A DNA stretch of 7,970 nucleotides, taken from the IMG/VR virus record IMGVR_UViG_2534682078_000012. One strand, written 5' to 3'. The notes under the pieces are model-generated. The model ran no database searches. It was not told the DNA's origin and saw only the letters and a list, made by a program, of their open reading frames with translations. Origin of the DNA: a virus. Lineage: Duplodnaviria; Heunggongvirae; Uroviricota; Caudoviricetes. Of this stretch, positions 2,755 to 3,473 are shown one piece after another (the first letter of the stretch is position 1; each line of letters starts with the position of its first letter). The position numbers were made by a program, and so were the translations under genes.

Positions 2755-3324
2755 ATGAATATGATGACCGTGCCGTTTCACGGCGATTCTCTTTATGTGG
2801 TTAACCATAACGGCGAACCATACGTTCCCATGAAACCTGTCGTTGCGGGGATGGGGCTGGCCTGGCAATCACAGTTGGCTAAGTTAAGACAGCGTTTTGC
2901 GTCAACTATAACGGAAATCGTTATGGTTGCTGAGGATGGGAAACGACGCAATATGGTGTCCCTGCCGCTTCGAAAACTTGCAGGCTGGTTACAAACCATC
3001 AATCCCAACAAAGTAAAACCCGAAATCCGCGGCAAGGTAATCCAGTATCAGGAAGAGTGTGACGATGTTCTCTATGAATACTGGACGAAGGGTTTTGTCG
3101 TTAATCCCCGTCGAATGAGTGTGATGGAAGAACTCAATCAGGCTTGCGCTGACATGAAACGGGATAAAAACATTGCCAGTGTGTTTGCTACCGGGCTGAA
3201 TGAGTGGAAACAGGTTAAATCCGCGCATGTATCAAAAATCCGCACATTGATAAACGAAGCGAATCTGCTGATTGATTTTGTCCTGGCTGATACAGGCAAA
3301 GGGAAAATAACAAAGGCGGATTGA
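2755..3324 (+). CDS. Phage antirepressor-like protein (P22 Ant N-terminal-domain family), 189 aa
   Basis: N-terminus MNMMTVPFHGDSLYVVNHNGEPYVPMKPVVAGMGLAWQSQLAKLRQRF matches the P22 antirepressor N-terminal domain pattern as I recall it; AAAGGAAA Shine-Dalgarno 8 nt upstream; an ant gene between R and Rz is a known arrangement in Stx-type prophages. Confidence 0.7.
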   Translation: MNMMTVPFHGDSLYVVNHNGEPYVPMKPVVAGMGLAWQSQLAKLRQRFASTITEIVMVAEDGKRRNMVSLPLRKLAGWLQTINPNKVKPEIRGKVIQYQEECDDVLYEYWTKGFVVNPRRMSVMEELNQACADMKRDKNIASVFATGLNEWKQVKSAHVSKIRTLINEANLLIDFVLADTGKGKITKAD

Positions 3325-3473
3325 TGGAGTGGTGGCTAATGATATCGGATAAACTCATAACGCTGGCGAAGATCCTCTGTGTAATCGTCGGCATTTCATT
3401 TTTAGTCATGCTGGTTGCCATTTTCTTTTCCACCGCCTGGCGAGTCCTGACGTTATCGGGACTGGTGGGGTGA
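3324..3473 (+). CDS. Small hypothetical single-pass membrane protein (49 aa), not in the supplied ORF track
   Basis: ATG at 3324-3326 overlaps the ant stop TGA (3322-3324) by one base; stop TGA 3471-3473 lies 7 nt before the Rz start. Hand translation: MEWWLMISDKLITLAKILCVIVGISFLVMLVAIFFSTAWRVLTLSGLVG. Alternative start ATG 3339 preceded by GGTGG. It fills the ant-Rz gap exactly. Confidence 0.45.
   Translation: MEWWLMISDKLITLAKILCVIVGISFLVMLVAIFFSTAWRVLTLSGLVG

Follow-up and report, generated by a model that had tools for sequence, protein, structure and literature searches.

A conserved gene for a predicted 44-residue membrane protein abuts Rz in the lysis cassette of Shiga toxin prophages

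The lysis cassette of phage P2 reportedly carries, between the endolysin gene K and the Rz-like gene lysB, the gene of LysA, a non-essential membrane protein that affects the timing of lysis. The gene described here occupies a similar place. It is a small open reading frame (ORF) on the plus strand, ending at position 3473 of a 7,970-nucleotide stretch of viral DNA (IMG/VR record IMGVR_UViG_2534682078_000012; hereafter the window), where it lies between ant and the i-spanin gene Rz. The window derives from the late region of a prophage of E. coli/Shigella that is lambdoid and of the Shiga toxin (Stx)-phage type. The small ORF resembles the LysA gene in its location between endolysin and i-spanin, in specifying a predicted membrane protein and in being a dispensable accessory. 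LysA is much larger, with several transmembrane segments, and no sequence relationship between the two was detected, the small ORF matching phrog_4906 only.

A second membrane-bound accessory is the releasin gp25 of phage Mu, a membrane-tethered accessory of a signal-arrest-release (SAR) endolysin; it belongs to DUF2730 and consists of an N-terminal transmembrane segment and a cytoplasmic domain (Chamblee et al., 2022, PMC9239132). The dependence of the Mu endolysin gp22 on releasin is due to basic residues in its short cytoplasmic N terminus (PMC9239132), and the lysozyme of the window likewise has basic residues (R3, K4 and R6) in a short cytoplasmic N terminus. The small protein differs from releasin in that it is 44 residues long, has no soluble domain, gives no match to DUF2730 and also occurs together with an endolysin of the GH108 family.

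Shiga toxin leaves the bacterium mainly by phage-mediated lysis, and an uncharacterised membrane protein in the lysis cassette of most Stx phages is a candidate for an influence on lysis timing and toxin release. Three points concern annotation: the gene is real, its conserved start is an internal ATG (44 residues) and its adjacency to ant is accidental. As a discovery it is modest, the gene being already catalogued and no function being assigned by this analysis.

A conserved gene and its internal start

The ant gene ends with TGA (3322–3324), the last base of which begins an ATG (3324–3326) in the overlap TGATG; a second in-frame ATG follows at 3339–3341. The small ORF stops with TGA at 3471–3473, and the ATG of Rz (3481) comes after the 7-nt sequence AAGAGAG. 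The coordinates in an earlier note made from the letters of this DNA, which described an unlisted frame of 49 residues, are all correct. It was unlisted only in the ORF track used there: the gene is present in RefSeq and as PHROG 4906. ORF listing gives 3321..3473 from TTG (50 residues), 49 residues from ATG 3324 and 44 from ATG 3339. The elements of the locus are as follows.

3324–3338, plus strand: optional N-terminal extension of five codons (MEWWL), starting at the ATG that shares a base with the ant stop; in the 49-residue RefSeq annotation, not conserved
3326–3335, plus strand: Shine-Dalgarno-like sequence GGAGTGGTGG ahead of ATG 3339, read from the sequence
3339–3473, plus strand: coding sequence of the small membrane protein, 44 residues (MISDKLITLAKILCVIVGISFLVMLVAIFFSTAWRVLTLSGLVG) plus stop; PHROG 4906
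3372–3440, plus strand: codons of the predicted transmembrane helix, residues 12–34 (hydropathy, AlphaFold2), with the invariant S20, F21 and W34
3412–3509, plus strand: predicted RNA stem in which small-ORF codons (about 3419–3431) pair with the Rz Shine-Dalgarno sequence and start (about 3474–3482); this allele only
3474–3480, plus strand: ribosome-binding region of Rz, the 7-nt spacer AAGAGAG that follows the stop of the small ORF and precedes the ATG of Rz

The related loci used for comparison number 166 (160 from IMG/VR, several from RefSeq genomes) and contain 17 distinct coding sequences. Frame, length and stop position are intact in every one of them, with TGA replaced by TAA in one lineage; the frameshifts and premature stops that the earlier note had named as grounds for abandoning the gene are thus not seen among these loci. 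The pooled Nei-Gojobori ratio of non-synonymous to synonymous substitution (dN/dS) is 0.43–0.51 in frame versus 0.8–1.3 in both other sense frames. Against the most divergent copy (L170, 30 nt differences) dN/dS is 0.26; when 30 substitutions are placed at random, as few amino-acid changes arise in 0.2% of trials and a stop is created in 61%.

Comparison of upstream contexts moves the start from 3324, as first proposed, to 3339. In four related loci (L095 type) the sequence ahead of the second ATG reads ATG GAG TGG TGA and in three (L006 type) ATG GAG TAG, so that a stop lies between the two ATGs in seven loci; the extension itself is found in ant-linked loci only. Where ant is absent the ORF starts at the methionine of MSDK, with AGGGAGG or AAGGGG 5–7 nt before the equivalent ATG. 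Because the ATG at 3324 is cut off in seven loci and the non-ant loci start at MSDK, the conserved coding sequence is, by this comparison, 3339–3473 (44 residues), with ATG 3339 as its conserved start. The sequence GGAGTGGTGG is its likely ribosome-binding site. Initiation at 3324 is possible in this allele and is no feature of the family. The allele resembles lambda S107/S105 and phage 21 S71/S68 in having two in-frame ATGs five codons apart in the gene of a membrane protein. It differs from them in that MEWWL adds no positive charge (MGWL likewise has no basic residue), is interrupted in seven loci and is absent from the non-ant loci. As the 3324 ATG is not conserved, the pair of ATGs is not a dual-start motif of the holin/antiholin type.

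The protein is predicted to cross the membrane once, as the earlier note had proposed. Its Kyte-Doolittle maximum over 19 residues is 3.14 (ILCVIVGISFLVMLVAIFF), compared with 1.7–1.9 for the cassette holin and the SAR segment of the lysozyme, and AlphaFold2, run with an alignment of 19 sequences, gives a single helix (residues 2–39, mean predicted local distance difference test score 89). D4, K5 and K11 precede the hydrophobic segment and R35 follows it. K5 and K11 are invariant or nearly so and the C-terminal tail lacks a basic residue in most alleles; the positive-inside rule predicts an N-in/C-out topology. Over 22 distinct sequences K5, S20, F21, W34, L37 and G44 are invariant, substitutions preserve the hydrophobic character and the length is held at 43–44 codons. 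Conservation shows no 100-degree periodicity of the kind expected for a helix-packing face (shuffle P = 0.45). A cleavable signal peptide was considered, the S-T-A ahead of W34 fitting the −3/−1 rule; judged by inspection it is unlikely, as the motif is lost in the alleles FLPW, SINW and SMVW and the hydrophobic core is too long. There is no lipobox ([LVI][ASTVI][GAS]C), the only cysteine (C14) being preceded by K-I-L.

The gene is real and already known. PHROG 4906 (‘unknown function’) matches over its full length (E = 1.4e-33, residues 1–49 of the 49-position profile), and the profile also matches the 43-residue homologues and the L170 copy. RefSeq has it as the hypothetical protein WP_000455406.1 (coding sequence of 150 nt) of strain E2863, on DNA 100% identical to the window. 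In O157:H7 Sakai the orthologue is the novel small gene XECs191, with the sequence MMGWLMISDKLITLVKSLCVLVGISFLVMLVAIFFSTAWRVLTLSGLVG (Hucker et al., 2017, PMC5597208); it is the 933W-type allele (L076 type) and differs from the window by about 5 nt over the ORF. In LB it gave 30.0 reads per kilobase per million (RPKM) for RNA and 12.6 for RIBOseq, with a ribosome coverage value of 0.43 and a coverage of 0.55, in uninduced cultures and with low signal; its product was predicted by the authors to lie in the inner membrane, with a single transmembrane segment, and their classifier called the gene ‘real’ (PMC5597208). An orthologue of the gene is thus reported to be translated. PHROG 4906, WP_000455406.1 and XECs191 represent the same family as the small ORF, are all uncharacterised and use the longer start. 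A literature search with the accessions and the family identifier returned no paper, and two surveys of Stx-phage lysis regions do not mention the small ORF.

The lysis cassette and expression ahead of Rz

The small ORF is accompanied in the window by a lysis cassette of the phage 21 type, with the following members.

1728–1943, plus strand: phage-21-type class II holin (pinholin family), PF04971, E = 7e-33
1948–2481, plus strand: lysozyme with a weakly hydrophobic SAR-like N terminus (hydropathy 1.91 over residues 9–27), PF00959
2588–2610, plus strand: terminator-like hairpin in the spacer between the lysozyme gene R and ant
2755–3324, plus strand: Ant-like protein of 189 residues (P22_AR_N + ORF11CD3; Pfam and PHROG matches), a variable insert at this site
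3481–3945, plus strand: Rz i-spanin, 154 residues, PF03245, E = 1.6e-49, phrog_13
3701–3886, plus strand: Rz1 o-spanin lipoprotein, embedded in Rz, PF06085, E = 3e-22

Endolysins of Stx phages are predicted to be of the SAR type (PMC8136144). Phage-21-type holin and lysozyme genes lie 5′ of the small ORF in every locus with enough flanking DNA, and in nearly all loci a gap of 7–11 nt (11 nt by the L003 annotation) leads to Rz, in agreement with the view that the ORF abuts Rz in a late lysis cassette; the two are separated in a few loci by an incomplete copy of phrog_1115 together with a further tiny membrane ORF. The upstream neighbour varies. It is the 189-residue Ant-like protein in 84 of the 166 loci, an unrelated 60-residue membrane protein (phrog_1115) in 69 and a 31-residue membrane ORF (phrog_6632) in five; PhiR5_1 and some Stx1a phages instead have, ahead of the small ORF, another Ant (of the PF03374 type) and then the 31-residue ORF. 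The small ORF is thus kept with either type of ant or with phrog_1115, and with varying Rz alleles. Because the gene persists with other upstream neighbours and in other cassettes, its adjacency to ant is accidental. The translational coupling to ant earlier read from TGATG does not hold for the family: that ATG is cut off in seven loci and absent from the non-ant loci, and phrog_1115 takes the place of ant in 69. A defence pair with ant, another early suggestion, is likewise not borne out, as the gene travels without ant and PADLOC has no match for it (Ant itself is marginal at E = 0.011). Homology of the small ORF to its phrog_1115 and phrog_6632 neighbours was rejected (hhalign probability 0.45%).

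The P27-like prophages (L170/L171, E. coli E9) have the small ORF in a different setting. Here it follows Phage_holin_8, Phage_holin_3_7 and a GH108 endolysin without a hydrophobic N terminus, is again preceded by Ant or a relative of phrog_1115, and is followed after 4 nt by the gene of a 51–60-residue lipoprotein (phrog_7528; lipobox LLVGC, mature part of about 30 residues with three cysteines) and then by HNH/terminase genes. Gene-calling with Pfam found no Rz/Rz1 in these prophages, nor is an Rz-like ORF listed at 1800–4900, no dedicated spanin search having been made. The P27-like regions are L170 1844–4715, L175 601–3452 and L172 (phiP27 itself) 1437–4067; phiP27 has the lipoprotein gene (L32) and lacks PHROG 4906. 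In K-12 Qin, by contrast with the window, the cassette has no small ORF and rrrQ/rzpQ (R/Rz) overlap by 4 nt. The small ORF is an accessory and not a core lysis gene, because the cassettes of K-12 Qin and, to our knowledge, of lambda, phage 21 and P22 do without it. What stays constant is that it comes after the endolysin gene and closely abuts the following gene, which encodes an envelope protein.

The R–Rz interval of E. coli lambdoid prophages is a hotspot of tiny membrane ORFs besides PHROG 4906 (window 2482–3480; L002 2804–3132; L092, L145 and L161, after the small ORF; L173 2602–2950). They comprise the 60-residue phrog_1115, the 31-residue phrog_6632, a 28-residue ORF, MSAELIRAMAFAIRIVAIAVLVWAIRWW (phrog_4493-like), the stop of which is 2 nt ahead of the Rz ATG, and a 38-residue ORF in PhiR5_1. 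The C-terminal motif of phrog_6632, P-x-L-[YW]-G...A-x-K, resembles that of phrog_1115.

A simple scan found no sigma-70-like promoter on the plus strand between 1600 and 4700 and no terminator downstream of the small ORF. The hairpin at 2588–2610 has a 10-bp stem (AGAGGCACCG...GGTGCCTTT) and lies about 110 nt past the lysozyme stop; at the same place the non-ant loci (L114, L092) have a different GC-rich hairpin with a T tract (AAAACCCCG...CGGGGTTTTGTGTTT), which is even more terminator-like. With no promoter of its own and a terminator-like hairpin after R, the small ORF would be transcribed only with the Q-antiterminated late operon, and the genes from the hairpin through Rz are predicted to depend on antiterminated transcription. 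In Sakai, RNA and footprint values similar to those of XECs191 were recorded for ECs2969 (13.8/9.4) and ECs2971 (47.3/21.1) (PMC5597208). From length and spacing, and as an unverified assignment, these two look like another prophage's genes for the holin and the DUF1378 protein, which lends weak support to late expression.

As R and Rz overlap in the insert-free cassette of K-12 Qin, a translated ORF abutting Rz is the normal state. The stop of the small ORF lies inside the Rz ribosome-binding region, and for both reasons its translation probably helps to load ribosomes onto Rz. Folding of the RNA of this allele gives a minimum free energy of −37.8 kcal/mol (z = −2.55), and a hairpin that enforces the coupling to Rz was considered; it was rejected, being a property of this allele and not conserved in six others.

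Candidate roles in lysis and the alternatives

The explanation we favour, at a probability of roughly one in three (0.35), is that the small ORF, translated immediately upstream of Rz, specifies an inner-membrane protein that assists the late lysis module without being essential to it. The product would be a 44-residue bitopic protein of the inner membrane. Its conserved lysines would lie in a short N-terminal stretch in the cytoplasm, followed by a single, highly hydrophobic helix, and the last 10 or so residues, W-x-x-L-x-x-x-G-x-x-G, would be at the periplasmic face. The protein would be made only within the Q-antiterminated late operon S-R-[ant]-smORF-Rz/Rz1, and translation of the small ORF would load ribosomes onto Rz, as the overlap of the R stop and the Rz start presumably does where there is no insert. 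The peptide itself may act in the inner membrane and tune the timing or the efficiency of lysis, probably not as a partner of Ant; a function of the peptide is favoured because K5, S20, F21, W34, L37 and G44 are invariant. The lysis-modulator reading of the earlier note therefore stays reasonable for a real membrane gene in this position with a translated orthologue, whereas membership of the holins or antiholins is not supported. Holin profile hidden Markov models (Pfam, NCBIfam and PHROG ‘holin’, PF04971 included) give no match, the true holin of the cassette being the gene at 1728–1943, there is no charged C-terminal domain of the holin type (the tail has 0–1 charged residues) and no conserved dual start. 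Nor does the small ORF match the i-spanin family of Rz (PF03245), its periplasmic tail being only about 10 residues. Origin by duplication of the Rz transmembrane segment was also considered on account of a shared ‘LCV’ motif and rejected (hhalign probability versus Rz 0.2%).

Several observations weigh against a role in lysis. Position by itself is no proof of such a role, since genes with plainly no lytic function, ant for one, also occur in the R–Rz interval. Phages lambda, 21 and P22, whose cassettes serve as models, are not known to need the small ORF for lysis. The gene accompanies two unrelated holin/endolysin sets, with or without Rz, and so points to no particular partner in lysis. 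Because the prophages of Sakai include many nearly identical copies, the RIBOseq reads assigned to XECs191 may be multi-mapped. The RNA stem of the window is not reproduced in six other alleles (z from −1.6 to +0.5). Purifying selection is moderate, not strong. In the P0073 lineage (L167–L169; MSGKLTKLAEILWIIACISFSATLAAFLLSMAWMALSSSGLVG) dN/dS is 1.2–2.4 versus the closest relatives and the otherwise invariant Cys14 is lost, which indicates either relaxed or diversifying selection. The first 60 nt or so differ little among E. coli loci, synonymous sites included, and recent recombination, not constraint over a long time, may be the reason.

A broader proposal, which we regard as doubtful, is that PHROG 4906, alone or with phrog_1115 or phrog_6632, is a portable accessory of lysis cassettes that is independent of the type of holin and endolysin. 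Such an accessory could set the lysis time or prime the membrane for spanin action, and would influence phage burst and Shiga toxin release; in the P27-like prophages in which no Rz/Rz1 was called it could work with the phrog_7528 lipoprotein at the outer-membrane step.

Of the competing explanations we take most seriously, although we consider it unlikely, a moron-type cargo gene with a non-lytic role (superinfection exclusion or a change of the host membrane, for example), carried alone or with phrog_1115 and placed between R and Rz because the interval is an insertion hotspot. Two ant genes that are unrelated to each other and at least four types of tiny membrane ORF indeed occur in this interval, the pair of phrog_1115 and small ORF moves as a unit between unrelated cassettes, a terminator-like hairpin separates R from the small ORF, RNA and footprints are detectable in uninduced cultures, and 32% of E. 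coli genomes contain the family, a single genome having as many as 11 copies. A stop codon inside the Rz ribosome-binding region would, however, be odd for an independently expressed moron, and there is neither a promoter-like site upstream nor a terminator downstream; the low uninduced expression in Sakai is like that of the apparent late genes of another prophage (their identity unverified) and fits spontaneous induction, and PADLOC gives no match. It is distinctly unlikely that the ORF is translated yet functionless, its frame open by chance and its conserved junction spread by recent recombination. The little-varying 5′ 60 nt at a mosaic breakpoint, the presence of only 17 distinct sequences in 166 loci, the very narrow distribution (29 matches in 1.84 billion representative proteins), the dN/dS above 1 in the L167 lineage and the frameshifted copies in decayed remnants would all fit such a history. 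The points against it are that frame, length, stop and the Shine-Dalgarno sequence with its ATG are kept across at least five unrelated upstream contexts and about 25–30% nucleotide divergence, at which the simulated chance of gaining a stop is 50–67%, that the stop survives the change from TGA to TAA, and that dN/dS against L170 is as low as 0.26.

The role of the ORF could also be mainly one of coupling, with translation restored up to the Rz start after inserts have split R from Rz and the peptide a tolerated by-product. Between its stop and the following start lie 7–11 nt, or 4 nt in L170, where the lipoprotein gene comes next, a different 28-residue ORF ends 2 nt before the Rz ATG where other ORFs intervene, R and Rz overlap in insert-free cassettes, and the stem of this allele pairs codons of the small ORF with the Rz Shine-Dalgarno sequence and ATG (z = −2.55). 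The stem is not conserved, however, and a by-product would not be expected to show fewer amino-acid changes than random placement gives (P = 0.002–0.007), a preserved hydrophobic character, six invariant residues over 22 sequences and a length of 43–44 codons; as the main role, coupling is decidedly improbable. A small membrane toxin, either like those of type I toxin–antitoxin systems or a holin-like depolariser, is suggested by size and by the single, extremely hydrophobic helix, in which the protein resembles Hok/Gef and TisB. Unlike those, the small gene sits in a phage late operon and not in a self-contained toxin–antitoxin locus. No toxin or holin family of Pfam, NCBIfam, PADLOC or the annotated PHROGs is matched and Rfam finds no RNA. 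A crude scan, which excludes an antisense regulator only weakly, found no promoter-like site on the minus strand near the ORF (the only one is at 4384), the antisense frame has no conserved start or end, and the charged C-terminal domain of holins is missing. We consider a toxin highly improbable. For the small ORF as a whole, Pfam (E ≤ 0.1), NCBIfam, PADLOC and Rfam return no match.

Distribution and further features of the window

PHROG 4906 is a narrow family of E. coli/Shigella lambdoid and P27-like prophages, with next to no members outside them. Of 5,426 complete E. coli genomes, 1,749 (32%) contain the small ORF, at 4,653 places and with up to 11 per genome, and every one of the genome matches listed is annotated ‘hypothetical protein’. 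It is also present in 276 phage records, nearly all of them of Stx or other E. coli/Shigella phages. Among 5.8 billion proteins it forms 62 clusters, of which all named ones are from E. coli or E. coli Stx phages, and an exhaustive search with a profile hidden Markov model of 1.84 billion representative proteins for remote homologues gave 29 matches, each a close relative or a fragment. A scan of genomes representing 185,579 species showed nothing credible besides one 328-bp contig of a Xanthomonas pisi assembly (L006, NZ_JPLE01000251.1). This contig is identical to E. coli phage DNA, with 100% amino-acid identity over the small ORF, and is probably a contamination of the assembly. Decayed remnants, such as one on an IncFIB plasmid, contain frameshifted copies.

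The 401 bases around the small ORF are 100% identical to many Stx1 and Stx2 phages, examples being Stx2 converting phage I, phage 86, PA2, the Shigella phages 7888 and 75/02, and E. coli E2863. The small ORF lies at a mosaic junction; its 3′ half exists in several alleles, such as FFSTAWRVLTLSGLVG and FLSMAWMMLSSSGLLG, and the flanks are exchangeable on both sides. An antisense ORF of 72 residues (3215–3433, minus strand) overlaps both ant, at its 3′ end, and the small ORF. No allele has a stop in this antisense frame, and its dN/dS (0.58) is similar to that of the sense frame. Where the ORF starts and ends varies with the context, and it was rejected as a gene of its own, being best explained as a by-product of the hydrophobic codons of the sense strand.

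The remaining genes with simple boundaries are listed below.

19–1026: C-terminal part of a NanS-p-like esterase, DUF6645
1159–1338: DUF1378 protein, 59 residues, hydrophobic segment at the N terminus
1379–1651: DUF826 protein
3977–4270, minus strand: bor
4679–5485 and 5466–7172: two terminase subunits

The DUF1378 and DUF826 proteins, small and uncharacterised, are encoded just 5′ of the holin gene and are kept in most related loci. The small-terminase-like protein (4679–5485) has no Pfam match and contains a short repeated acidic/histidine motif, KIDHEIDHKTDHEIDHDISDEE, at 4800–4870. The P22-type portal gene, which starts at 7172, is interrupted after 82 codons by an IS1203/IS629-like element of the IS3 family (7420–7970), the transposase of which (7423–7941, minus strand) has rve domains. 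The exact junction of portal gene and insertion element is absent from all complete E. coli genomes in the collection. The prophage that carries the window is defective.

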